This document shows, one piece after another, positions 1 through 12,757 of a stretch of 26,040 nt of DNA. Every line of letters starts with the position of its first letter. Within the stretch, counting starts at the first letter, position 1. The translations under genes and the position numbers were made by a program. The stretch comes from Bacteroidia bacterium (GTDB lineage: Bacteria > Planctomycetota > Phycisphaerae > Phycisphaerales > SM1A02). Below the pieces are notes generated by a model. It searched no databases. It was not told the DNA's origin and saw only the letters and a list, made by a program, of their open reading frames with translations. The stretch lies in contig JASGCG010000001.1 in NCBI GenBank assembly GCA_030054235.1, forward strand, positions 1 to 26,040, written 5' to 3'.

Positions 1-669
1 CGTCTCCTCGAGCTTGAGCCATGGGAACTTGAGCAGCACCCAGTAGCAGACCGTGACGAAGGTGCAGAAGCAGAAGACGCCCTGGAAGAAGTCGGTGACG
101 AGCACCGCCAGCATGCCGCCGGCGAAGACCATGAAGACCGCGAACGCCAGCAGCGCGCCCATCACCGCCGGGAAGGTCTCGATCGCCATGCCGGCGACCG
201 TGAACTCGGCCGGCAGGCCGAGCATGGCGATGAAGAACCGCGCCGTGACGCCGGGGAAGATCGCGTAGTTCAGGATGCCGCTCACGAAGGCGACCACGCC
301 GCTGAAGACGCGGAAGCGCTTGGAATAGCGCATCTCGAAGAACTGCGCGAGGGTCATCGCGCGCGTCTCGCGGAACCGGTAGATGACCCAGCCGGTGATC
401 GCCAGCAGGATCAGCGACGGGCCCTCGAGGTAGCCCCACCAGTACTGCGTGAAGCCCACGTCGTACCCGAGCTGGAAGTACCAGACCAACGTGATCACGC
501 CGACCTGCGCCATGTTGTACGAGACAGTGAGCAGGTAGCGGCCGGCGAGCCGGTTCGCGCTCAGGAAGCCGCTGACGCTGCGCGCATGTTCACGCATGCT
601 CCACGCCGAGAGCGCCAGCGCCGCGACGAACCCGATGACGATGAGCCAGTCGACGGTCGCGAGCGTCAT
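1..669 (-). CDS. Sodium:solute symporter (SSS) family transporter, N-terminal part; runs off window edge
   Basis: Not in the ORF track (no stop inside window). Manual translation from ATG 669: MTLATVDWLIVIGFVAALALSAWSMREHARSVSGFLSANRLAGRYLL...YRFRETRAMTLAQFFEMRYSKRFR...GGMLAVLVTDFFQG. The 'D-W-x-I', 'FL.A.R', 'T..QF.E.RY' and 'GG..AV..TD..Q' motifs are typical of SSS transporters; multiple hydrophobic helices. Confidence 0.9.
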   Translation of the reverse strand, partial: MTLATVDWLIVIGFVAALALSAWSMREHARSVSGFLSANRLAGRYLLTVSYNMAQVGVITLVWYFQLGYDVGFTQYWWGYLEGPSLILLAITGWVIYRFRETRAMTLAQFFEMRYSKRFRVFSGVVAFVSGILNYAIFPGVTARFFIAMLGLPAEFTVAGMAIETFPAVMGALLAFAVFMVFAGGMLAVLVTDFFQGVFCFCTFVTVCYWVLLKFPWLKLEET

Positions 670-678
670 GCAGCCATG

Positions 679-3600
679 CTAACGACGCCCCGCCCGGCGG
701 ATCCGCAGCGAGGCGATCTCGAAGGCGCGCAGTCCGAGCCACCAGCCATCGCGGTCCGTGCACGGCGCGAGCCTCGAACGCGCGAGCGGTGCCTCGAAGA
801 AGTCGCAGCGCACCACGTCGTCATGCGGCATCGACGGCGACACCAGCACCTGCCGCGGGGCGCCAGAGTGATCGACCACGCGCACCACGACATCGCCGCT
901 TCCATCGGACGCGGGCTTCATCGCGCTCACCTCGAGCAAGCCGTCGCCGAAGGCGAGGATCCCGACCGGATGCATGCCCGCAGCGGCAGCACCGGCGCGA
1001 CCCGTCGACACCGTGATGGGCGGATTGTTGAACCACTCGGCCTGCACGGAAACCGACGAGGCATCCTGCCCGACCGGCAGGATCGCGTACTCGAACTCGT
1101 GCACGCCGCGGTCGCACGTGGGGTCGGGGAAGTTGGGACTCTTGACCAGCGTCAGGCCCATGGAGCCGAGCTTGCCGCTCTTGCCGAAGATGCCATCGTC
1201 GAGGATCGCCACACCGTCTTGGCCATCATGGATGAGCATCCAGTCGTGGCCGGGCACTTCGAACTGCGCTGCCTGCCAACTCGTGTTGTCGTGCGCGTCG
1301 CGGTCGATCCAGCCGCACTGCGTGCCGAAGCGCACCGTCCGGCTGCGGAGCGCCGTGGGGAAGAGCGCTCGCAGCACCGTGCGTTCCTCGCACCAGTCGA
1401 GCCGGGTATGGATGCGCAGGTACGACTCGCCGGGGCGCAGGCTGCAGGTCTGCACGATGCGGCTCGCACGGCCGAGCGCGCGCTCGATGCGCAGCATGGG
1501 CACGCCACCACGCACGATCGGCGTGATCGTCGGGCGCCCGGTGATCGGGATCGGCTTCTCGGCATGCTCACGGTCGGTATCCCACGCTTCCCAGCGACGC
1601 GGCCGATCCTCGTAGAGGGCCAGCTCGTTGAGGCCGTGGCCATCGCGAGCGGTGCAGGAGATGCCGTCGCGCTCGATCCAGCTCACGCGGCCTTGCGCAT
1701 CGAACTCCGCAACGTCGTGGCCGAGCGCGAGCGTGGTCCGCGTGGCCTTGGCGCGAGCGGGCTTCGGGCGACGCACGGTCGACACGCCGCACTCGGGGAT
1801 CTCCTGCAGGCGAGGCTCATCTATGCCGGCGGGTCCGGCCGGTTCGAGCTCGATCGCGGTGCTCGCCGGATTGAAGACGACCTCGCCGGCGGCAGGAACG
1901 CGCGCGCGGATGCGGGCGAGGCCATCGTCACGCAGGGCCTCGAGCCGCTTGAGCGCCGCACCCATGGCGATGCGCGCATCGTCGTACACGGCCTTGATGC
2001 TCGAACCCGGCAGGATGTCGTGGAACTGGTGCAGCAGCACGGTCTTCCAGAGTCCGTCGAGCTCGGCGAGCAGCGCGCGCTCCTCGGCGCGGGGCATCGG
2101 CGCGATCACGGCAAGCATCTCGACCTGGCGCAGCAGGCGCTCGCCACGCCGGTTCGCCCGCTTGATCCAGCGCTGGCTGGTGTAGGTGCCGCGGTGCGCT
2201 TCGAGGTAGAGCTCGCCGTCCCAGACCGGCAGCGGCTCGCCCCGGCGCTCGCTCGCGCGCGCCTGCCGGTGCAACTCGCCGCACAGGTCCCCTGCCTTCA
2301 TCGGCTCGCACGCTGGAAGCCCCTGCGATCGCCGCGCATTCGCCGCACGCTCGATCTGCGACGGATCGGGCCCGCCGCCGCCATCGCCCCAGCCGTACGG
2401 CTGCAGGTAGGCGCGCACACGCCCTCGATCCTGGCGCTCGATGTTGCGCGCGCCCGCCACGAGATCGTTCGGGAGGAACTCGCTGTTGTAGTTGTGGCCC
2501 GGCGTGAAGTGGCTGAGCACCTCGGTGCCGTCGAGCCCGCGCCATCGGAACGTCACATGCGGGAAGCGGTTGGTACCGCTCCAGATCATCTTGTTGGTGA
2601 TGAAGGTATCGAGCCCCGCAAGCGCGATGATCTGCGGCAGGCACGCAGGGAATCCGAACGTGTCGGGCAGGTAGAGGAACCGCTGCGGTGCGGCGGCCCC
2701 GAACTGCTCGCGCCACCAGCCGGTGCCATGCACGATCTGGCGGATGAAGCTCTCGCCGCTCGGGCACGTGCCGTCGGGCTCGATCCACATGGCGCCGTTG
2801 GGCTCCCAGCGTCCAGCCTTCACGGCCTTGCGGACCTGGTCGAACAGCGCGGGGCTCTCCTCCTGCACCATGCGGTACTGCGCCGCCTGACTGCAGAGGA
2901 ACGTGAAGCCCGGGAAACGCTCGATCGATCGAAGCGCCGTCGCGAAGGTGCGCACGCACTTGCGACGCGTCTCGTCGATCCTCCAGAGCCAGGCCGTGTC
3001 GATGTGTGCGTGACCGATCGGCACGCACGTGATGGCATGCAGCGGATCGGCAGAACCCTTCAGCAGCGCCTCGAGCGCCGGTGCCTGGGCCAGCACCACC
3101 GATCGCGAGATGGTCGCTGCGGGGATCGCACGCACGATGGCACCCAGGCCGCTGCGCAGGTCATTGGTGCGCGGGTCCTCGGCGCTCCCGTTCCACAGGC
3201 AGCGGCGCAGGAGATCGAAGCGCTCGGCGAACTGCCACAGGCCTTCGTCAAGCACGACGAGCTCGGCGCACTCGAGCCGCCCGGGCTTGCGCTCGCTCCA
3301 GCGCGCACGGACCTCGGGCTGGTCCCACCAGAACGTCGTCGCCCCCAGCGGGAGATTGCACGCGGCTTCGATCCACAGGTCGACACGCTGGCCCGCACGG
3401 CCGCGAGCACGGTCGTTCCACACGAGCGGTGCGATCGGTGCGGTGTCGTGGTACGGATCGAGGCCCGCGTGCGGCACGCCGTCGACCCAGACGCACGCCT
3501 CGGTGCCGCTGGAAAAGCGCAGGAGCACACGCTCGCCGGCAAAGTCGCGCGGCATCGTCCCCTGCACGCGGAACCAAGCGGTCGACCAGATCGGGCCCCA

Positions 3601-3780
3601 CCGGTAGCCCGGTTCGACCCTGGTCCGACGGGCGCGCTGCGCCACGTTCGGCGCCACACGCTCGGCGAAGTGGGCGACCTCGACGCGCAACGCCTCGCGA
3701 CGGGGCGCGGCGAGCGGGCGGAGGAGATCGTTGCAGAACTCCTCGAAGCGGATGGCATCCATCTGGTGGTCGGGCAGCAC
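679..3780 (-). CDS. Glycoside hydrolase family 38 alpha-mannosidase
   Basis: GHAHIDTAW (Zn-binding HxD), WEPNGAMW, PDTFG (nucleophile Asp), ELYLEAHRGTYTSQ, QFHDILPGSSI, QFEVPGHDW, CDRGVHEFEY. Start moved from the ORF-track 3819 to GTG 3780 because TACGCT lies exactly 6 nt upstream; ATG 3762 is an alternative. Confidence 0.95.
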   Translation of the reverse strand: MLPDHQMDAIRFEEFCNDLLRPLAAPRREALRVEVAHFAERVAPNVAQRARRTRVEPGYRWGPIWSTAWFRVQGTMPRDFAGERVLLRFSSGTEACVWVDGVPHAGLDPYHDTAPIAPLVWNDRARGRAGQRVDLWIEAACNLPLGATTFWWDQPEVRARWSERKPGRLECAELVVLDEGLWQFAERFDLLRRCLWNGSAEDPRTNDLRSGLGAIVRAIPAATISRSVVLAQAPALEALLKGSADPLHAITCVPIGHAHIDTAWLWRIDETRRKCVRTFATALRSIERFPGFTFLCSQAAQYRMVQEESPALFDQVRKAVKAGRWEPNGAMWIEPDGTCPSGESFIRQIVHGTGWWREQFGAAAPQRFLYLPDTFGFPACLPQIIALAGLDTFITNKMIWSGTNRFPHVTFRWRGLDGTEVLSHFTPGHNYNSEFLPNDLVAGARNIERQDRGRVRAYLQPYGWGDGGGGPDPSQIERAANARRSQGLPACEPMKAGDLCGELHRQARASERRGEPLPVWDGELYLEAHRGTYTSQRWIKRANRRGERLLRQVEMLAVIAPMPRAEERALLAELDGLWKTVLLHQFHDILPGSSIKAVYDDARIAMGAALKRLEALRDDGLARIRARVPAAGEVVFNPASTAIELEPAGPAGIDEPRLQEIPECGVSTVRRPKPARAKATRTTLALGHDVAEFDAQGRVSWIERDGISCTARDGHGLNELALYEDRPRRWEAWDTDREHAEKPIPITGRPTITPIVRGGVPMLRIERALGRASRIVQTCSLRPGESYLRIHTRLDWCEERTVLRALFPTALRSRTVRFGTQCGWIDRDAHDNTSWQAAQFEVPGHDWMLIHDGQDGVAILDDGIFGKSGKLGSMGLTLVKSPNFPDPTCDRGVHEFEYAILPVGQDASSVSVQAEWFNNPPITVSTGRAGAAAAGMHPVGILAFGDGLLEVSAMKPASDGSGDVVVRVVDHSGAPRQVLVSPSMPHDDVVRCDFFEAPLARSRLAPCTDRDGWWLGLRAFEIASLRIRRAGRR

Positions 3781-3823
3781 GCAGGCAGCGTACGGTGCAG
3801 TCGCGTGGCACACCATCACGACA

Positions 3824-3849
3824 GCGCCCCGCCGGCGAGGGCGGGGCGC
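3824..3849. terminator. Perfect 10-bp GC hairpin between DUF481 gene and mannosidase; possible terminator or mRNA stabiliser
   Basis: GCGCCCCGCC (3824-3833), 6-nt loop, GGCGGGGCGC (3840-3849); 26 nt past the DUF481 stop on the minus strand; no clear U-tract. Confidence 0.45.
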
Positions 3850-3875
3850 GGATCGACGAAGGCCGGAGGCCGGGC

Positions 3876-4784
3876 TCAGAAGTTGAACTGGATGCCGGCG
3901 TAGTACCGGAGCTCGTTCTTCGCCGTGCCGTCGGTCGCGCTCGAGTTGTACTCGTCACGGACGCCAGCGATGAACGAGAGGTTGTCGGTGTTGGGGATGT
4001 CCCAGATGAAGTCGGCGTACACGTTGATGAAGTAGAACTCCTGGAAGTTCGCGACGTCGGGCACGTACTGGCCGCCGAACTTCACGCGCTGCTCGTCATT
4101 GATCGTCCACAGGCCTTCGAACGAGGCCAGGAAGCTCGGATACCAGCGATCGCTCGTCCCTTCTTCACGCGTGGCACCGAAACCGATGCGGGGCGTGAGT
4201 TCGAGCGGCTTCTCGGTGTAGAGCCGGTAGCCGACCCCGCCGAAGATGCTGTAGCGCTGCTTCCACGACTGGAACTCGTCGTACTCGAACTGCGCCTTCT
4301 CGAAGATCGTCCAGCGGCTCTCGCCGAGGTCACGCTCGAGGATCTGCGTGGCGAGCGCGTTGTTGTCCTGCGCCTCGCCGTTGTTGGATCGGTAGTACCA
4401 CTGCGCATCGACCTGGAAGAGCCAGCCGTCTTCCTTGTAGAGCGTGCCGCCCGCGAGCCGCACGTCCAGGGTGTCGTTGGTCGACTGCACGCCCGAGACC
4501 GAGGCGTTCACGTAGGACTTCCAGGGCGAGGCCGGTGCCGGCGGTGCGATCGCCTTCACCTCGGTGAACTGGTCGGGTCGAAGCGCGATGTCGCCCAGCA
4601 CCGGGTGCTTGAGCACGATGCCGTTGGCATCCTGCTTGGTGACTTCGCCCTTGAGGGTCTCTCCGTTGGAGAGCTTCACCTCGGACTGCGGGGGCGTGGG
4701 CTGGGCCTGCACCAGGGCAAGCGCATCGGCGAAGGCGAGGGGTGCTGCGAGCAAGGCAGCCAAGAGCGCAAGGCAACGAGTCAT
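3876..4784 (-). CDS. DUF481/YdiY-like outer-membrane beta-barrel protein
   Basis: Signal peptide MTRCLALLAALLAAPLAFA with GGAG SD upstream of ATG 4784; N-terminal 'V.L.NG..L.G.V' module; alternating aromatic beta-strands (WTIFEKAQFEYDEFQ, FGGVGYRL); C-terminal YYAGIQFNF with terminal Phe. Confidence 0.8.
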   Translation of the reverse strand: MTRCLALLAALLAAPLAFADALALVQAQPTPPQSEVKLSNGETLKGEVTKQDANGIVLKHPVLGDIALRPDQFTEVKAIAPPAPASPWKSYVNASVSGVQSTNDTLDVRLAGGTLYKEDGWLFQVDAQWYYRSNNGEAQDNNALATQILERDLGESRWTIFEKAQFEYDEFQSWKQRYSIFGGVGYRLYTEKPLELTPRIGFGATREEGTSDRWYPSFLASFEGLWTINDEQRVKFGGQYVPDVANFQEFYFINVYADFIWDIPNTDNLSFIAGVRDEYNSSATDGTAKNELRYYAGIQFNF

Positions 4785-4852
4785 GCTGGGTCTCCGGTCG
4801 ATCAGGCGGGTTTCTGCGGCAGCCGACCGTGGCGGAAGTCCGATGGCGATCC

Positions 4853-4880
4853 TTGCCTTCGGGGGGCGGCACCATACACT
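4853..4880 (+). promoter_or_regulatory. Sigma70-type promoter for the Cys-rich ORF/efflux operon; predicted leaderless start
   Basis: TTGCCT (4853-4858), 16-nt spacer, TACACT (4875-4880), 6 nt, GTG 4887. Confidence 0.6.
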
Positions 4881-4886
4881 CACTCC

Positions 4887-5300
4887 GTGCGAGGCGTGAC
4901 CGTCCATCTGCTCGCGATGTGGATCGCGATGTGCTGCTGCCAGTGGCGCGCTGTCGGCGCTGCCATGGGCCTGCAGTCGATCCCGTCATGCTGCGCGCCG
5001 ACAGAGCCGGTCGATCCCTGCTGCGATAACTGCTGCACGGGTCCGGACGAGCGCAGTGAAGACGAACGACCGCCGGCCGACTCCAACCGGTGCGCCGGCT
5101 GCTGCGACAAGGGCCTTGCCCCATCCGCCGACGACCTGCCGTCGTCGCTCTTCGACCTCCACCTCGATCACCTCGGCACCCTGCTGCTTCATGTGCCGAG
5201 CATCGCCCTGCCATCGATCGATCGATCGATCGAACATGGCACCGTGTGGCACCCGCCGCCGGGCCGATTCCGGCCGCTGGTCTGCATCCTGACCGTGTGA
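4887..5300 (+). CDS. Small Cys-rich exported/membrane protein (137 aa), DUF2946/CutF-like putative regulatory uORF
   Basis: 3' end of ORF-track 3081..5300. Hydrophobic N-terminus, 13 Cys (CCC, CC, CCxxCC, CxxCC, terminal C), His cluster LHLDHL, C-terminal WHPPPGRFRPLVCILTV. Promoter upstream; efflux operon 75 nt downstream. Confidence 0.7.
   Translation: MRGVTVHLLAMWIAMCCCQWRAVGAAMGLQSIPSCCAPTEPVDPCCDNCCTGPDERSEDERPPADSNRCAGCCDKGLAPSADDLPSSLFDLHLDHLGTLLLHVPSIALPSIDRSIEHGTVWHPPPGRFRPLVCILTV
5213..5232. repeat. Tetranucleotide tandem repeat (ATCG)5 inside the Cys-rich ORF
   Basis: ccATCGATCGATCGATCGATCGaa, encoding P-SIDRSI-E; longest such run seen in the window. Confidence 0.95.
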
Positions 5301-5375: not shown

Positions 5376-6743
5376 ATGCCGAAGCCCCTGTTTCGGGCTG
5401 CCGCCGCTCTCCTGGCCTTCGTTCTGGCCGCCTTCCTGGCCGCAGCCTGCACCTCGACCGACCATCACGACGCATCGCGCGACACGCTTGAGAGGGATCT
5501 CGCACGCGCTGCGCTCGATGGCGGCGCGAACCCGCTCCCCGCTCCCGCCGGCGCACCACCGACCGACCGCGCCCTGACGGCCGACGCCGCCGTGGCGGCC
5601 GCACTCTCCAGCAATCCATCCTTCCGCGCCGATGTGCTCGCCGCGCACGAGGCTGCTCTCGCGGTCGATGCCGTGGCGCTCGGCCCCACGCCGATGGTCA
5701 TGCTCGAGATCGGCGTGCCCCTCACCGACACGGCCACCGTACCGATCCTGGCACTGCTCACCGCATCGCTGACCGATCTCGTCACTCGCGGCGATCGGAT
5801 GGAGATCGCCAGCCTGCGGGCCCAGGCCATGCATCTGTCAGCCATCGATGCTGCAACGATGCTCTCGGCCTCGGTGCGCGAGCGCCATGCGATGGCCTGG
5901 CGTGCGCAGGAGTCCCTGCACCTGGCAGAGGCTCGCTTCGCTCTCGCCCAGACCGAGGCCGATCGCGAGAGCGCGCTCGCCTCGAAGGGCCTTGCATCCG
6001 TCCGCCGTGACCAGGCCGGTGCGGCGATGCTGGCTTCCGCGCGTGCTCAACTCGAGCAGGCGCGGTCCGCGCACACCACGGCGGTGCGCGCACTCGCCGC
6101 CGCGATGGGTTGTGCCCGGCAGGATGTCGAGTGGGCCGTGGCTCGTCCGGAACTGCCGCCATGGCCGGACGCCGGCCTGATCGGCAACAGTGCCGTGACA
6201 CCCGCGGCCCGCATGGCCGTTGCACTCGCGGCCGCGACGCGCATCGAGGCCGAGCTCGTCCGCTCGGGGTTGACGCAGAACGCCAACCTCGGCACCGGCT
6301 ACATGCAGGACGAAGAAGACATGAAGGCGATCCCCATCGTGCTGCAGTTCGCGCTGCCGATCGGTGCCGAGGGCGCCACGCGTGAACAACGCGCCGCGCT
6401 CATGGACGAGTCGGCAGCGCTTCGTGCCGAGGCAGCTCTGCAACAGGCGCATGTCCGGCTCGCCGATGCGCTCGACCGCGAGTCATCCGCCCGCGTGGCG
6501 GCCGAGGCGCTCGAGCGCACCACGCTCGCCGCCGCGCGGACCCAGCATGAACGGCTGCGCACGCTCGCCCAGCGCGGTGCGGCTACCACCAAGGAGCGCG
6601 ACCAGGTGCGCATGGCCTGCCTCGATGCCGAGAGCGAGGCAGTCATGGCGCATGCCAACGCCTGCATCGCCGCCGCCGAGCGGGTCGCCGCCAGTGCGGG
6701 GCTTGACCTGGCGCAGGACGGCGGGCGGAGGGCCGAGCGATGA
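5376..6743 (+). CDS. TolC/CusC-like outer membrane efflux factor, lipoprotein
   Basis: Lipobox LAAAC, long Ala/Glu-rich coiled helices, duplicated architecture, beta-strand segment ANLGTGY...IVLQFALPI; AAGGA SD; directly upstream of adaptor gene with ATGA overlap. Confidence 0.85.
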   Translation: MPKPLFRAAAALLAFVLAAFLAAACTSTDHHDASRDTLERDLARAALDGGANPLPAPAGAPPTDRALTADAAVAAALSSNPSFRADVLAAHEAALAVDAVALGPTPMVMLEIGVPLTDTATVPILALLTASLTDLVTRGDRMEIASLRAQAMHLSAIDAATMLSASVRERHAMAWRAQESLHLAEARFALAQTEADRESALASKGLASVRRDQAGAAMLASARAQLEQARSAHTTAVRALAAAMGCARQDVEWAVARPELPPWPDAGLIGNSAVTPAARMAVALAAATRIEAELVRSGLTQNANLGTGYMQDEEDMKAIPIVLQFALPIGAEGATREQRAALMDESAALRAEAALQQAHVRLADALDRESSARVAAEALERTTLAAARTQHERLRTLAQRGAATTKERDQVRMACLDAESEAVMAHANACIAAAERVAASAGLDLAQDGGRRAER

Positions 6744-7933
6744 CCGACCCGATCACCACATCGACGCAGGAGCCGAGCATGATGCAGCCCACCATGATTC
6801 CACCGCCAAACCGACGCGCAACGCGACTCTTCGCCTTCGGCGTCTGGAGTGGCGCGATCGCCGGCGCCTTCGCGCTCATCGTGTTCTGGTTCGGCCGGCC
6901 GCAGCCGGTCGCCATCACGCGGGCCGTGGCGCGCGAACTCGGTTCGTCCTTCGCTGGCAGCATCGTGCAGGCGCCGGGCTGGATCGAGGCTCGCCCCTAC
7001 GCCACCCTGGTCCCGGGCCTCGTCGATGGCACGGTCACCTCGGTCAGGGCGATCGAGGGCGATGCCGTGAAGGCCGGACAGGTGCTCGCCACGATCGATG
7101 CGCGGCCCTTCGAGGAAGCCGAGCAGCAGACAGCGGGCGCTTATGCGATGGCGCGGGCCGAGACCGTGCAGGCACGCCTGCAGCACACGCTTGCGGACGC
7201 GCGACTCAGCGTCGGCGAGGCCGCGCAGGTCGACGTCGACCTGGCGGCAGCGCAACTCGCACGTGCCGAGGGCGCGGAACTCATGGCGCGGGGCGCCTGG
7301 GAACGTGCCGCACTCGACGTCGAACGCTGCAGCGTGATCGCACCGGTCGATGGCGTGATCTTCGAGCGCCGCGTCGAGCCGGGCGAGCGCATCGGGAGCG
7401 ACATGGAGAACGAAGGTGCCATGTTCGCGCTCTTCGATCCCGCCATGGTGCAAGTGCGCTGCGACGTACCGCTCGCCGATGCCGGCAGCGTGCTTCCTGG
7501 CCAGCTCGCCGAAGTCACGGTCGATGCCTTCAAGGGGCGGACCTTCCGCGGCACGGTGCTCGTGGGTGGTTTCAGGGCCGACATCGCAAAGAACACGCTG
7601 CAGGTCAAGATCGGCCTCGATGATGCCGACGGCCTGCTGCGCCCGGACACGCTCACGCGCGTGCGGATCATGGTGCCGGGTTCGAGCGCCGGCTCAGCAC
7701 GCACGCAGGTGGTGGTGCCTGCCGACTGGGTCGTACGCGATGGCTCACGCTCCACCGTCCTGGTGATGGATGCCGGCTTCCTGCGCCGCGTCGACCTCGG
7801 CGAGGCCACCGACACGGGCGATGGGTGGATCATCGCCGCAGACGGGATCCGCCCAGGCGAGGTGCTCGTGCATCCATCGCATGCCGCGCTGCCTGACGGC
7901 ACGCGCATCGCTCCCAAGGAGGAAACGCCATGA
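6740..7933 (+). CDS. Periplasmic adaptor (membrane fusion protein, HlyD/MacA-like)
   Basis: Single N-terminal TM; lipoyl half-motifs 'VDGTVTSVRAIEGDAVKAGQVLA' and 'VIAPVDGVIFERRVEPGE' flanking a coiled hairpin; ATGA overlaps on both sides. Confidence 0.92.
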   Translation: MTDPITTSTQEPSMMQPTMIPPPNRRATRLFAFGVWSGAIAGAFALIVFWFGRPQPVAITRAVARELGSSFAGSIVQAPGWIEARPYATLVPGLVDGTVTSVRAIEGDAVKAGQVLATIDARPFEEAEQQTAGAYAMARAETVQARLQHTLADARLSVGEAAQVDVDLAAAQLARAEGAELMARGAWERAALDVERCSVIAPVDGVIFERRVEPGERIGSDMENEGAMFALFDPAMVQVRCDVPLADAGSVLPGQLAEVTVDAFKGRTFRGTVLVGGFRADIAKNTLQVKIGLDDADGLLRPDTLTRVRIMVPGSSAGSARTQVVVPADWVVRDGSRSTVLVMDAGFLRRVDLGEATDTGDGWIIAADGIRPGEVLVHPSHAALPDGTRIAPKEETP

Positions 7934-8616
7934 GCCTCATCGAGTGCCGATCGCTTTGCAAGGATTACCAGCGCGGCGGTGAGGCCGTGCACGTCCTCGA
8001 CCGACTCGACCTGTCGATCGATCGCGGGTCCTACACCGCGCTCATGGGTCCAAGCGGCAGCGGCAAGACCACGCTGCTCAACCTTCTCGCGGGCATCGAC
8101 CGAGCCAGCTCGGGCGAGCTGCTCGTGGACGGGACGGATCTGGCGCAACTCGACCGCAACCAGCTCGCGCTCTGGCGATCGCGCCACGTGGGCTACGTGT
8201 TCCAGCTCTACAACCTCGTTCCCGTGCTCTCGGCGTACGAGAACGTCGAACTTCCGCTGCTGCTGCACGACCTCACCGCCGCCGAGCGGCACCGACGCGT
8301 CGTCGAGGCGCTCGAGTCCGTCGACCTGGCGACCCGCCATGGTCACCTGCCCCGCCAACTCTCAGGCGGCCAGGAACAGCGCGTCGCGATCGCCCGCGCG
8401 CTGGTGACGCAACCCACGCTGCTGCTGGCCGATGAACCGACAGGCGATCTCGACCGCACCAACGCCGATGCGGTCATGGACCTCTTCGGCCGGCTCCATC
8501 GCGAGCGTGGCCAGACGATCGTCATGGTCACGCATGACGAGGCCATCGCCCGGCGCGCAGAGCGCACCGTCCGCCTCGAAAAGGGCCGGCTCGCCACCGT
8601 GGAGGTGGCACGATGA
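7930..8616 (+). CDS. ABC transporter ATP-binding protein, MacB/LolD-type
   Basis: Walker A GPSGSGKTT, Q-loop GYVFQLYNL, signature LSGGQEQRVAIARAL, Walker B LLLADEPTGDLD, H-loop VTHD; AAGGAGG SD. Confidence 0.97.
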   Translation: MSLIECRSLCKDYQRGGEAVHVLDRLDLSIDRGSYTALMGPSGSGKTTLLNLLAGIDRASSGELLVDGTDLAQLDRNQLALWRSRHVGYVFQLYNLVPVLSAYENVELPLLLHDLTAAERHRRVVEALESVDLATRHGHLPRQLSGGQEQRVAIARALVTQPTLLLADEPTGDLDRTNADAVMDLFGRLHRERGQTIVMVTHDEAIARRAERTVRLEKGRLATVEVAR

Positions 8617-9767
8617 GCGCACTCCTGAGCAGGATCCGCTACGCGCTTCGCAGCGCGCGCCGCCAGCGATTTCGCACCGTGGCCTTGGTCGCCGGTGTCG
8701 CCCTGACCACGTCGCTCGCCGCGGCGATCGCGTGCATCGATCTTGGCGTGCGCGACGCCACGACCACTCGCGCGGGCGAGACACGGCTGATCGTGTACCG
8801 CGAGAACCGGTTCTGTCCCTTCGCGAGCGCGCTGCCGCAGCGGTACGACCGCCAGATCGCCGAGCTGCCCGGCGTGGCGGCCGTCATGCCCGTGAAGATC
8901 GTCGTCTCCAATTGCCGCGCCTCGCTTGATGTGGTGACCTTCCGTGGTGTGCCGGTCGATGACCTGCGCGCGATGGCGCCCCGACTTGCAGCCGGCTCGA
9001 TCGACGCTTGGGCCGGCCACGGCAATGGCGCCTTGGTCGGGCGCGAACTCGCGGCTCGGCGCGGCCTGCGCGTGGGGTCATCCCTGACGGCCGCGGGCAT
9101 CGATGTCGTGGTCGATGGCATCCTCGAGAGCGATGATCCGCAGTGGCGCAACAGCGCGCTCACGCACCTGGCCTACCTGCAGGAGCGGGCCGCGCGCGGG
9201 GGAACTGGCGGCATCGTGACGCAGTTCGACGTGACCGTGAGCGACCCAGCGCGGCTCGAGGACGTGGCGCGGACCATCGACGAACGGTTCAAGGCGGACG
9301 AGGCCCCCACCGCGACTCGCCCGCAGACGGCGTTCGTGGCCCGCGCCGCGCGTGATGTGGTCGCGCTCGCAGGCTTCAGTTCGATCATCGGCATCGGTGC
9401 GGTGCTCGCTGCCTTCGGCCTCCTCGCCACGACGATGGTCAACGTCACGCGGCATCGCTCGCGCGAGTTCGCGGTCCTGCGCACGTTGGGCTTCACCGAC
9501 GGCGGCATCAGCGCCATCGTGCTTGCCGAGGGCGCACTCGTCGGCGGGCTCGGGGGCCTTCTGGGCGCGGGCCTGGCCTGGTTCGGGCTCGCGCGTGCCG
9601 GACTGGCGTTCACCATGGAAGGCGTCTCGATCACGCCGCGGCTGGATCCTGCGATCTTCATCGTTGCCGCTGCGGTGGCGCTTGCGGCAGGACTGCTGGC
9701 CACGGCGATTCCAGCATGGTCGGCGTCGCGCGCGCGGCTGGTCGATCTCCTGCGGGGTGCATCATGA
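8613..9767 (+). CDS. ABC transporter permease 1, FtsX/MacB-like
   Basis: One N-terminal TM, periplasmic domain with 'GALVGRELAARRGLRVG', C-terminal three-TM FtsX domain with 'RSREFAVLRTLGFT'; ATGA overlaps. Confidence 0.93.
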   Translation: MSALLSRIRYALRSARRQRFRTVALVAGVALTTSLAAAIACIDLGVRDATTTRAGETRLIVYRENRFCPFASALPQRYDRQIAELPGVAAVMPVKIVVSNCRASLDVVTFRGVPVDDLRAMAPRLAAGSIDAWAGHGNGALVGRELAARRGLRVGSSLTAAGIDVVVDGILESDDPQWRNSALTHLAYLQERAARGGTGGIVTQFDVTVSDPARLEDVARTIDERFKADEAPTATRPQTAFVARAARDVVALAGFSSIIGIGAVLAAFGLLATTMVNVTRHRSREFAVLRTLGFTDGGISAIVLAEGALVGGLGGLLGAGLAWFGLARAGLAFTMEGVSITPRLDPAIFIVAAAVALAAGLLATAIPAWSASRARLVDLLRGAS

Positions 9768-10927
9768 CGATGCTCCCGATGGAGTACTCGCTGCGCGGGC
9801 TCACGCGTGGGCGCGGGCGGACCGTGCTCGCACTCATGGGATCGTTGGTGGCGGGCGCGCTCATCGCGACGGCATCGGCGTTCCTGGGCGGCATGGAGTC
9901 AGCGCTTGGATCGACGGCCTCGCCTTCGCGCGTGATCGTCATGGGTGCAGGCAGCGAGGAATCGCTCGAGCGCAGCGAGATCGGCGCGCGTGTGCCGGGC
10001 GTGCTGTCGGCGAGCGTGCAGGGCATACGACGGACGGCAGGCATGGAGCACGTGAGCGCCGAGACGCACGTGGCGCTGCCGATCGCCGTGGATGGCGCCG
10101 AGGCCGCGAGCGACAACGGTCTGGTGCGCGGCGTCGGTCCGGCAGCGCTCCTGGTCCACCCCAACGTGCAGCTCACCGGCGGGCGCTGGCCCGAACGCGG
10201 CGCCGGCGAAGTGCTGGTCGGTTCGAGCGCCATGCGCAGGCTCGGCGTGGATCCAGCGGCTGCCATCGGCAGTCGTGTCGTGCTGGCCGGCGCACCGCTC
10301 ACGATCGTGGGCACCATGCAGGCGCCGGGATCGACGATCGACGGCGAGTGGTGGATGCCGCTGGAAGACCTCACCACGCTGATGCGGCGCGAGACGATCT
10401 CGTGCGTGATCGTCGACCTCGACCGCGCGACGATCGGCGACGTGCAAGCCTTCACGCTCTCGCGGCTCGATCTTGAGCTCGCCGTCCTGGCCGAACGCGA
10501 CTACTACGCGTCGCTGCTTGCGTTCTTCGCACCGGTGCGTGTGCTCGTGGCGGTCGTGGCCACGCTCATGGCGCTCGCCGCCGCGCTCGGCGGCGCGAGC
10601 GCACTGGCCGCTGCCTTCAGTGAGCGCGTGCGCGAGAACGCGGTGCTGGAAACGCTCGGGTACCCGCGCCATGCGGTCATCCTCGATGTCCTCCTGCAGT
10701 GCACGATCGTGGCGGTCAGCGGTGCCGCTGTCGGCGGCCTGCTGGCGCAGTGGCTCTTCGGCGGCATGCTTGTCGAGTTCAGCATGGGCACGTTCGCCTT
10801 GCAGTTCGATGCACGTGCCACGCTCCTGGCCGCCGTGACGGGTTTCGTCGTCGCGATCGTCGCGGCCTTCCTCAGCACCTGGCGCTGGATCGGGCTGCCG
10901 ACGCCCGAGGCGCTGCGGACGACATGA
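9764..10927 (+). CDS. ABC transporter permease 2, FtsX/MacB-like
   Basis: Start at ATG 9764 (ATGA overlap with permease 1 stop): MTMLPMEYSLRGLTRGRGRT; 'GRWPERGAGEVLVG'; FtsX motif 'ERVRENAVLETLGY'. Confidence 0.92.
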   Translation: MTMLPMEYSLRGLTRGRGRTVLALMGSLVAGALIATASAFLGGMESALGSTASPSRVIVMGAGSEESLERSEIGARVPGVLSASVQGIRRTAGMEHVSAETHVALPIAVDGAEAASDNGLVRGVGPAALLVHPNVQLTGGRWPERGAGEVLVGSSAMRRLGVDPAAAIGSRVVLAGAPLTIVGTMQAPGSTIDGEWWMPLEDLTTLMRRETISCVIVDLDRATIGDVQAFTLSRLDLELAVLAERDYYASLLAFFAPVRVLVAVVATLMALAAALGGASALAAAFSERVRENAVLETLGYPRHAVILDVLLQCTIVAVSGAAVGGLLAQWLFGGMLVEFSMGTFALQFDARATLLAAVTGFVVAIVAAFLSTWRWIGLPTPEALRTT

Positions 10928-10963: not shown

Positions 10964-11539
10964 ATGCATCGACTCAACGCACTCATGCTCGCCTCCTCCG
11001 TCCTCTTCCTTGCAGCCTGCGGTGGCCAGAGTGGCGACCATGACCACAGCCACACGCGGCACGGACATGACCACGCCGCACCCACCGCGCCTGCAGCTCC
11101 CGAGGGCACATTCCCTGCAGCGCTCTTCTCCGGCGACCCAGCGGCGGAGCCAGTCGGCGTGGGGGCCATGAAGGCATCGGCCAAGCAAGGCGACCGCGTG
11201 ATCGTGGTTGGTCGCATCGGTGGCAGCAAGGATCCCTTCCTCGCTGACCGGGCCATGGTCACGATCGTCGATCCGAGCGTGAAACTCTGCGGCGAGGACG
11301 AGCCCGGCGATGACCACTGCGCGACCCCGTGGGACTTCTGTTGCGAGCCGCGCGAGAACCTGCGCAGGATGTCGATCGCGGTCGTGGCGAACGGAGCCGA
11401 CGGTGCACCCATTCCCCACACGCTGCTCGGCCAAGGAGGGCTCAAGCCCGGCGCGCGCGTGGTCGTCGAGGGCACCGTCGCGACGGTCGGCCCGGACGGC
11501 GCCGCGATGCTCGTGGCCGAGCGCATCGTGGCCCGGTGA
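10964..11539 (+). CDS. His/Cys-rich lipoprotein of unknown function, probable OB-fold metal-binding protein
   Basis: Lipobox LAAC; DHDHSHTRHGHDH; C-x9-C-x-TPWDFCC; beta-rich 'GDRVIVVGRIGG' and 'GARVVVEGTV' segments; AAGGA SD. Confidence 0.8.
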   Translation: MHRLNALMLASSVLFLAACGGQSGDHDHSHTRHGHDHAAPTAPAAPEGTFPAALFSGDPAAEPVGVGAMKASAKQGDRVIVVGRIGGSKDPFLADRAMVTIVDPSVKLCGEDEPGDDHCATPWDFCCEPRENLRRMSIAVVANGADGAPIPHTLLGQGGLKPGARVVVEGTVATVGPDGAAMLVAERIVAR

Positions 11540-11602: not shown

Positions 11603-12757
11603 ATGCTCCGCCGCGACGAAGCCCGTGCCGCCATCACCCGCGCCATGCGGCGATCGCCAGTCGCCCTGCTGCTGGGTCCCCGCCAGTGCGGCAAGACCAC
11701 GCTTGCCCGCTCCTTCGTCGACGTCGGCAGCGAGGCCTACTTCGATCTTGAGTCGCCCGCCGACCTTGCACGCCTTGCCGAGCCGATGACCGCGCTCGGC
11801 AACCTGCGAGGCACCGTCGTCATCGACGAGGTGCAGCGCCGGCCGGACCTCTTTCCCGTGCTCCGCGTCCTGGCCGACAGGCGACCGCTCAGGACGCGAT
11901 TCCTCGTCCTGGGCAGCGCCTCGCCCCACATGCTCCGGCAGTCGTCGGAGTCCCTCGCCGGACGAGTCGAACTCATCGAGCTCGGTCCCCTCACGCTCGA
12001 AGAGTGCGGGCAGGCCAAGCTCGGGCGACGCTGGCTCCGGGGCGGCTTCCCCCGCTCGTTCCTGGCGCGCTCGCAAGGCGACAGCGCGGCATGGCGCCGT
12101 GACTTCATCGCCACCATCATCGAACGCGATCTGCGCTCCTACGACAGCAGGCTGCCGTCGCCGCTGGCTCACCGGCTCTGGACCATGCTGGCTCATCACC
12201 ACGGCCAAGTCATCAACCTCAGCTCGGTGGCTGGGTCGCTCGGCATCACCGTCCCCACCTTGCGTCACCACATCAACCTGCTCGCGGGCCTCATGGTGAT
12301 CCGGCTGCTTCAACCGTGGCACGAGAATCTCGCCAAGCGGCAGGTCAAGAGCCCAAGGATCTACCTCCGCGACACCGGGCTGCTACACAGCTTGCTTGGG
12401 ATCGAGACCACCAAGCAGATGCTGGGTTCACCGGTCTGCGGTCCGAGCTGGGAATCGCTGGCCATCGAGGAGATCCTCGGCCGCGTGCCGCATGCAGGAG
12501 CCGCATGGTGGTCGACGCATCAGGGTGCCGAGGTCGACCTCGTGCTGCTGGCCAAGGGCAAGCGCTGGGGCGTCGAAGTCAAGCGGACCGATGCACCGCG
12601 CATCACCCCATCCATGCGCAGTGCCATCGAAGCACTTGGACTCGATGGCATCACGGTGGTGTCGCCGGTCGACCGCGGCTTCAGGCTCTCCCCGGCGATC
12701 AAGGTCGTGGCGATGCATGACCTGATCGCCGATCCCGCAAGCGTCATCCGGCGTTGA
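11603..12757 (+). CDS. AAA+ ATPase, AAA_14 + DUF4143 (COG1373-type)
   Basis: Walker A GPRQCGKTT, Walker B VVIDEVQR, 'LGSAS', 'ESLAGR', 'RGGFP', HTH-like INLSSVAGSLGITVPTLRHHI, 'KSPRIYLRDTG', C-terminal EVDLV..GVEVK. Confidence 0.92.
   Translation: MLRRDEARAAITRAMRRSPVALLLGPRQCGKTTLARSFVDVGSEAYFDLESPADLARLAEPMTALGNLRGTVVIDEVQRRPDLFPVLRVLADRRPLRTRFLVLGSASPHMLRQSSESLAGRVELIELGPLTLEECGQAKLGRRWLRGGFPRSFLARSQGDSAAWRRDFIATIIERDLRSYDSRLPSPLAHRLWTMLAHHHGQVINLSSVAGSLGITVPTLRHHINLLAGLMVIRLLQPWHENLAKRQVKSPRIYLRDTGLLHSLLGIETTKQMLGSPVCGPSWESLAIEEILGRVPHAGAAWWSTHQGAEVDLVLLAKGKRWGVEVKRTDAPRITPSMRSAIEALGLDGITVVSPVDRGFRLSPAIKVVAMHDLIADPASVIRR

Follow-up and report, generated by a model that had tools for sequence, protein, structure and literature searches.

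The window analysed here, a stretch of 26,040 nucleotides, carries the operon of a tripartite ABC pump followed by the gene of a small lipoprotein. On the forward strand, the operon runs from a TolC-like outer membrane factor (5376-6743, +; Pfam OEP, 6.6e-08) through a periplasmic adaptor, or membrane fusion protein (6740-7933, +; TIGR01730 at 127 bits against a cutoff of 94.9, and HlyD_D23), and a LolD/MacB-like ABC ATPase (7930-8616, +; Pfam ABC_tran, 7e-35, the NCBIfam LolD model staying below its cutoff) to permease 1 (8613-9767, +) and permease 2 (9764-10927, +), both of which combine MacB_PCD and FtsX according to Pfam and to the orthologue alignment. A longer reading frame for permease 2, starting at 9716, was rejected; the true start is the ATG at 9764, which overlaps the stop codon of permease 1 (ATGA). 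The lipoprotein gene occupies 10964-11539 (+; 191 aa, the stop codon being included in the coordinates) and is defined by its reading frame and translation, by its homologues and by an AlphaFold2 model. It starts with an ATG, and a Shine-Dalgarno-like site, GAAGGA, is found 8 nt upstream. A scan for terminators and promoters around this gene returned a single terminator-like match, which lies inside the coding region and is at the level obtained with shuffled sequences.

Just upstream of the TolC-like gene lies a small leader ORF of 137 aa with a GTG start (4887-5300, +), which is not called in related loci and was recognised from its sequence and from relatives in other loci. A gene for a DUF481 outer-membrane-type protein (3876-4907, -) is divergent from the operon, an arrangement that recurs in one related locus (L004), and adjoins a GH38 alpha-mannosidase gene (679-3819, -). 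Two long ORFs on the plus strand, 586-3903 and 3081-5300, are shadow frames opposite minus-strand genes and were set aside. The next gene after that of the lipoprotein, at 11603-12757 (+), encodes an AAA_14/DUF4143 ATPase; as it is not conserved beside the operon elsewhere, it is probably unrelated.

The lipoprotein begins with a signal peptide, read from the sequence (10964-11023, +), which ends in the lipobox L-A-A-C with Cys20 (codon 11021-11023) as the lipidated residue. This site fits the pattern [LVI][ASTVI][GAS]C of bacterial lipoproteins, the substrates of signal peptidase II, and bears out an earlier note on this DNA, which had described an exported lipoprotein with a lipobox cysteine. 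Of 268 family members, 194 show a lipobox-like site, the remainder being mostly fragments or proteins with uncertain starts. Residues 21-49 (11024-11110, +) form a flexible tether with pLDDT below 50 (44-48 in blocks), inside which a His-rich arm is located; across the family, tethers have a median length of 24 residues and are rich in A, P, G and S. Past the first strand of the folded domain comes a conserved loop, G-R-I-G-G-S-x-x-P-F (residues 83-92; 11210-11239, +), in which G83, R84, G86, G87, P91 and F92 are either invariant or conserved to 90% or more. The signature insert of the family, C109-x9-C119-x-T-P-W-D-F-C126-C127, lies between strand 3 and the helix and has invariant columns (11288-11344, +). 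The C-x9-C-x-T-P-W-D-F-C-C motif is thus found exactly where the earlier note had located it.

The AlphaFold2 model, built from 29 homologues, has a mean pLDDT of 81.7, with values above 90 in the core and below about 50 for residues 1-49 (signal peptide and tether). Strands are predicted at residues 78-85, 98-102, 137-143, 165-175 and 181-190, and a helix at 130-135. This layout implies that the Cys motif fills the connection between strand 3 and the helix of an OB barrel. The model indeed has the features by which the OB fold is defined, a five-stranded closed beta-barrel with a helix between strands 3 and 4. Foldseek against the PDB likewise returned OB folds, with RMI2 as the best match (E 4e-4), followed by CcmE, Pot1, Ten1 and the anticodon domains of class II tRNA synthetases. 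In an exhaustive structural scan (VIA), OB folds were retrieved at Z 8.0-8.6, with rmsd 2.3-3.9 A over 82-100 residues; they include an engineered OB domain, MCM N-terminal domains, CcmE, YgiW and a Klebsiella OB lipoprotein, and because these Z values are tied across unrelated OB folds they establish the fold class only. Among AlphaFold DB clusters, two close uncharacterised relatives are followed by entries labelled BOF, DUF5666 and Slp. The insertion of the motif among OB-fold-like strands had been proposed from the sequence, together with structure prediction and a fold search as the means of checking it, and both led to OB folds.

In an alignment of 51 orthologues with a mean column identity of 35%, the invariant positions are G87, P91, C109, D117, C119, T121, P122, W123, D124, C126, C127 and A185. 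The conservation of TPWDxCC in homologues, another of the checks proposed earlier, is therefore complete in this set, T121, P122, W123, D124, C126 and C127 being the same in all its members. In the wider family, the four cysteines are kept in about 262 of 301 domain instances, 258 scoring as such and 4 more with a shorter spacer. Taken together, the invariant columns and the retention of the four cysteines make the motif a family signature, beyond what chance would produce. Natural variants with two cysteines keep C119 and C126 in two lineages and C109 and C126 in another; since these pairs differ, no disulfide pairing can be deduced from them, and disulfide and metal chemistry both fit.

About 30 members are tandem two-domain proteins, in which the signature is confined to the C-terminal domain. 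Several of their N-terminal domains carry three cysteines (CC-x9-13-C) at the signature position. Among the tandem members, P0044, P0065, P0075 and P0178 (L087:9001-9990; L088:568-1785) have an N-terminal OB domain devoid of TPWD, and CC-x9-13-C is seen in this domain in P0065, P0075 and P0178. One family member, P0075, ends in a fused DUF6370 domain bearing C-G-M-C, and another combines the loss of C127 with the tether sequence H-A-S-H-S-H-S-G-G-C-C.

The family is large. A word-indexed search recovered 43 relatives which, where labelled, come from MAGs of Phycisphaerae or Planctomycetaceae, and an exhaustive search yielded 771 cluster representatives at E<=1e-3, of which 460 at E<=1e-10. A pattern scan with one genome per species detected at least 595 loci carrying the family. 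The lipoprotein is present in 73 of 212 sampled high-quality Planctomycetota genomes, about a third, nearly always as a single copy, and the source MAG (74.6% complete) also contains one copy.

Neither the lipoprotein of the window nor any of the 51 orthologues attains the cutoff of a Pfam or NCBIfam model. DUF5818 (PF19135) was rejected, as it scores 17.1 bits against a cutoff of 27, covers residues 162-188 only and matches weakly in 2 of 51 members; a match to ribosomal protein S3 (E 0.017) was taken as spurious. The same set of proteins, the window lipoprotein and its 51 orthologues, gave no match to the Pfam family CusF_Ec at E<=0.01 and none to the BOF/YgiW family in Pfam. A sequence search of the PDB found no related solved structure, and a feature search in a protein atlas led to unnamed clusters only. 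Full-text literature searches for MacB-type pumps with an OB-fold lipoprotein and for planctomycete work on copper or ABC systems returned nothing relevant; a paper on copper in C. glutamicum names ftsX only as a cell-division gene.

The genes of the family are strictly linked to those of the pump. We fetched 85 loci and scored gene order wherever the upstream DNA sufficed. In 56 of 56 complete sets, the order adaptor-ATPase-permease 1-permease 2-lipoprotein is kept on one strand, and the lipoprotein gene always comes immediately downstream of permease 2. Linkage of the homologues to a transporter had been set beforehand as a test of the earlier proposal, and it is seen in every one of these complete loci. 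It is kept in distant members (25-28% identity) and in a tandem form, and in a member with 29% identity the lipoprotein gene lies between permease 2 and the adaptor, still linked to the pump. The flanking genes beyond this unit vary between loci. The TolC-like gene was found upstream in 18 of 48 informative loci and the leader upstream of the adaptor in 20 of 48; both counts were obtained by iterative profile search, tblastn at 1e-5 having missed most of both. In the related loci that we read, no conserved metalloregulator, P-type ATPase or other metal gene occurs nearby, and no RND gene is present in the operon of the window or in the related loci.

Gene content agrees with gene order. All five genomes with the lipoprotein have an orthologue of permease 1 alongside (about 590-600 bits), and all five relatives without it (98-99% complete) lack such an orthologue, their best match being 58 bits. 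This co-presence and co-absence in 10 genomes indicates that the lipoprotein and this pump subfamily are one inherited unit.

Prediction of a three-chain complex (permease 1, permease 2 and residues 48-191 of the lipoprotein) gave a score of 0.56 (0.63, 0.56 and 0.56 in the individual runs), with 0.00 for the best of three controls, and the score was abolished by swapping out permease 2. At least 89% of contacts are shared between the runs, and the partner has a pLDDT of at least 76; no interface was reported. In the calibration, 58 of 80 solved complexes passed the mark, as did 2 of 110 mismatched pairs, and passes at 0.60 or lower comprised only 7 of the 80 solved complexes and both of these mismatches, a band in which a prediction is more often wrong unless the prior is high; the docking job, with three chains and its own 51-row alignment for each, differs from the calibration setup. 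Combined with the high prior given by gene linkage, the weak docking score makes it modestly more likely that the OB domain is seated on the two permeases, and the model thus weakly supports docking at this place. The functional tie to the neighbouring adaptor and permeases that the earlier note had inferred is supported by the invariant order in 56 loci, by joint gain and loss, and by this weak predicted docking.

The permeases themselves have invariant periplasmic residues. Across 51 orthologues, the periplasmic domain of permease 1 contains two invariant cysteines, C68 (R-x-x-C-P) and C101 (N-C-x-x-S-L-D); neither MacB nor LolC/E is known to have a comparable pair. In the periplasmic part of permease 2, an acidic stretch is invariant, G-S-E-E-S-x-E-R-S-E (residues 63-71), together with invariant H132 and W197.

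The leader has a hydrophobic N-terminus ending in C-C-C-Q-W-R and at least five CC dyads; its C-terminal part contains a conserved H-P-P-P-G-R-F-R-P followed by a short hydrophobic end. It matches no Pfam model even at E<=1, the DUF2946/CutF model included. Its architecture of export signal, Cys motif and Pro-rich basic tail nevertheless resembles that of CutF. There, the N-terminus is exported, cysteines form a metal motif and the C-terminus is basic and rich in Pro, an arrangement by which periplasmic copper is coupled to translation of the next gene (PMC9973294). By this analogy, the Cys-rich, proline-tailed leader suggests a soft metal as a possible theme of the operon.

The His arm of the window lipoprotein, D-H-D-H-S-H-T-R-H-G-H-D-H (11036-11074, +), is specific to its clade, as judged from the sequence, family counts and the tree. 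H26, H28, H30, H33, H35 and H37 amount to six histidines within the 12 residues 26-37, just as had been noticed earlier behind the lipobox cysteine. At least five histidines in 12 residues occur in only 23 of 268 members, and the arm is carried by about 10-12% of the family and missing from about 88-90%; with a looser threshold, at least three histidines in tether or tail, 32 of 153 members qualify. Where present, it takes the form of an H/D repeat on the N-terminal tether, the C-terminal tail or both. A tree of 208 core domains, from which the arms had been left out, requires at least eight changes of this trait. His-rich windows were found in 9 of 79 lipoproteins as against 0-1 of 58-76 for each of the adaptors, ATPases and permeases of the same loci. 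The number of changes on the tree and the rarity of the arm indicate that it is optional yet repeatedly acquired. Such recurrent gain suggests, from the sequences, selection for metal capture in some lineages.

The lipoprotein is a genuine accessory subunit, hitherto undescribed, of a tripartite pump of the type VII ABC class; that the family as a whole and its tie to the pump are likewise real and undescribed we regard as very probable. What this subunit does is a more tentative matter. Our best overall explanation, to which we would give slightly less than an even chance, is a dedicated pump lipoprotein that docks on the permeases and hands over a soft metal to them. In this scheme, the protein would be the dedicated periplasmic subunit of a Planctomycetota-specific tripartite pump of the type VII (MacB/FtsX-type) class, assembled from two different permeases, one ATPase, the adaptor and, in many loci, a TolC-like channel. 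The lipid anchor and the disordered tether of about 30 residues would hold the OB domain, which would dock on the periplasmic domains of the permease heterodimer, and the insert between strand 3 and the helix would display the invariant surface D-x-C-x-T-P-W-D-x-C-C together with the upstream cysteine. We infer that the thiolates bind a soft metal (Cu(I) most likely, Zn or Cd possibly) or a metal-bound species, the His-rich arm serving in the clade of the window as an optional antenna for capture. The bound metal would then pass to the pump for expulsion, which is the job of CusF for CusCBA, performed here for an ATP-driven pump.

Several features of the sequences suggest this leaning towards metal. 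Four invariant cysteines, W123, D117 and D124 are gathered in one exposed insert, and His/Asp arms, the DUF6370 fusion, the Cys/His tether variant, the leader with its CC dyads and the Cys pair of permease 1 all suggest metal or thiol chemistry. A role as metallochaperone is thus plausible, and it is the single most likely reading, with a disulfide-stabilised accessory role that involves no metal close behind. The most far-reaching version of the scheme, in which a soft metal such as Cu(I) would be expelled by the operon as the first ATP-driven tripartite system of the type VII ABC, MacB-type kind, with a tethered OB-fold Cys4 chaperone of its own, a thiol relay leading to the invariant Cys pair in the periplasmic domain of one permease and, as switch, a CutF-like Cys-rich sensor acting as a nascent chain, appears to us rather unlikely.

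In the disulfide-stabilised alternative, which is quite possible if somewhat doubtful, the lipoprotein would still be a pump accessory, and two structural disulfides would stiffen the loop presenting W123, D124 and D117. The OB domain would then serve an organic cargo as a delivery, gating or assembly partner (for a peptide, a lipid or a metallophore), in the manner of LolA, EnvC or TesA. Gene linkage, co-occurrence and the weak docking (0.56 versus 0.00 for the best control) are the same for this alternative as for a metallochaperone. An even number of clustered cysteines in a Sec-exported protein means two disulfides by default, and the C-C-CC spacing with its vicinal pair is typical of a two-disulfide loop and a poor geometry for a mononuclear tetrahedral site; the exported lipoprotein does have an even count. 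The lack of the His arm in about 88-90% of members and of conserved metal genes near the related loci favours an accessory role of this kind and speaks against metal, as does, on the latter side, the adjacency of the leader and the outer membrane factor in only about 40% of loci. Moreover, the known substrates of MacB-type systems are organic (PMC8277102; PMC11481552). Pumps of this type transport organic compounds or peptides and are not known to move bare ions. Disulfides alone, however, fit poorly with the odd count of the three-Cys N-terminal domains in the tandem relatives, and a metal-free accessory also leaves unexplained the fusion to a CxxC-bearing domain, the Cys/His tether variant, the recurrent His/Asp arms and the leader with its CC dyads and Pro-rich tail.

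The Cys-rich leader could itself be the object of the system. The lipoprotein would then be a thiol-redox or chaperone partner for it, or for some other exported peptide rich in Cys; capture would proceed by mixed disulfides or by way of a metal common to both, and the pump would expel the peptide. MacAB-TolC does expel a disulfide-bonded protein, the enterotoxin STII, and the leader, whose N-terminus is of the export type and which has at least five CC dyads, recurs in these operons. Invariant cysteines are found both in the lipoprotein and in the periplasmic domain of permease 1. We nevertheless consider such a partnership improbable: only 20 of 48 informative loci have the leader next to the pump genes, the lipoprotein being present in all, the operon is devoid of maturation enzymes, and the Pro-rich basic C-terminus of the leader would suit a translational sensor better than a cargo (PMC9973294). 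Finally, the lipoprotein might be the cargo of a Lol-like or Aat-like machine that moves it from the inner to the outer membrane or to the cell surface. The ATPase has its best scores with LolD models, the permease pair is heterodimeric like LolCE, and a lipoprotein is encoded; yet the LolD score is 230.7 against a cutoff of 307.75 and that of lolCE 46 against 362. Lol systems have neither an adaptor nor a TolC-like factor, whereas here the former is always and the latter often present, and a LolCDE sorter identity for the neighbouring pump was rejected on account of the model scores and of the constant adaptor. A folded OB domain of about 15 kDa is also too big for a TolC-type duct of known dimensions, and a system restricted to about a third of the sampled Planctomycetota genomes is ill-suited to be a general lipoprotein sorter. 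A cargo role is therefore highly improbable.

The metallochaperone reading, to which we now return, was originally framed as an analogy with the OB-fold protein CusF with different ligands. This analogy stands for the general OB fold and for the difference in the ligand set; it fails as to family, there being no match to that of CusF, and as to the pump, which is an ABC rather than an RND system. CusF of the E. coli CusCFBA system hands copper or silver to its efflux pump (PMC8277102). Both proteins are small periplasmic beta-barrels of the OB class encoded in a tripartite efflux operon, and both have a Trp beside the ligands (proposed ligands in the present case) and, for the lipoprotein as a proposal, a handover of soft metal to the pump. 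The site of CusF consists of a Met/Met/His triad with a capping Trp; the lipoprotein barrel has no such triad, its conserved candidate residues being the four cysteines, W123, D117 and D124, of which the cysteines, with the His arm in addition, would be the ligands. CusF is absent from the top structural matches of the lipoprotein, which further differs from it by its lipid anchor and long tether and by its pump, an ATP-driven MacB-type heterodimer instead of an RND antiporter (CusA).

A precedent is offered by the PA4063-PA4066/ZrgA-E systems, split MacB-type ABC transporters with a His-rich periplasmic metal-binding partner (PMC8561739; PMC11481552). PA4063 and ZrgA, of P. aeruginosa and Vibrio, resemble the lipoprotein in that ATPase and permease are encoded by separate genes and in that the periplasmic partner, a proposed metal chaperone, has disordered His-rich segments (PMC8561739; PMC11481552). 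In contrast to the lipoprotein, PA4063 has a ferredoxin-like fold and no Cys motif. PA4064-PA4065, likened here by description, comprise one permease, with neither adaptor nor outer membrane factor in the operon, a DUF3299-type partner and regulation by Zur, in place of which the present operon has a Cys-rich leader.

Among the structural matches, CcmE, the haem chaperone of CcmABCDE, is one of the closest folds (Z 8.4, rmsd 2.3 A over 84 residues; Foldseek E 4e-3 to 8ce8_E), at a Z of about 8 that is tied with unrelated OB folds. It too is a periplasmic OB domain tethered to the membrane, with a cofactor as its load and an ABC-type complex as its partner; it differs from the lipoprotein by its transmembrane-helix anchor, by the absence of a Cys insert and by the lack of any sequence relation. 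The match to YgiW (Z 8.3, rmsd 2.5 A, 82 residues) is similarly tied with unrelated OB folds. The MCM N-terminal domain and archaeal RPA are OB barrels with an inserted Cys4 zinc module (Z 8.0-8.4, 96-100 residues); these are cytoplasmic DNA-binding proteins with CxxC knuckles, and the match established is that of the barrel.

A better frame than CusF is, in our opinion, the rule that type VII ABC systems each have a periplasmic partner: EnvC for FtsEX, LolA for LolCDE, MacA-TolC for MacB and TesA for YbbAP (PMC12646458). Current understanding of this class rests on these four E. coli systems, each defined by its partner. Like EnvC, LolA, TesA and MacA-TolC, the lipoprotein is an extracytoplasmic protein dedicated to, and encoded with, a motor of the MacB/FtsX fold, and it is weakly predicted to dock on the periplasmic domains of that motor. 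It is co-encoded and co-inherited with a MacB_PCD/FtsX permease and an ATPase, as expected of a type VII partner (56 of 56 loci; 10 genomes). Unlike the known partners, it is an OB barrel with a Cys insert and comes in addition to an adaptor and an outer membrane factor, which makes for a pump of five or six components; in the literature searched, no such extra partner has been described for a MacAB-TolC-type system. We propose that the lipoprotein is a fifth kind of type VII partner, an unannotated OB-fold family from hundreds of species that has been added to a full adaptor/TolC-type pump with a LolCE-like heterodimeric motor. If the Cys/Trp loop binds metal, soft-metal efflux across two membranes could be powered by ATP via MacB-type bellows instead of an RND antiporter, and one small soluble domain would provide a handle for testing ATP-powered metal efflux. 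Should the rather unlikely full scheme outlined above prove true, Planctomycetota would have in this operon a widespread and complete counterpart of CusCFBA of the ABC type. Even if the cysteines only form disulfides, the family marks a distinct phylum-wide pump.
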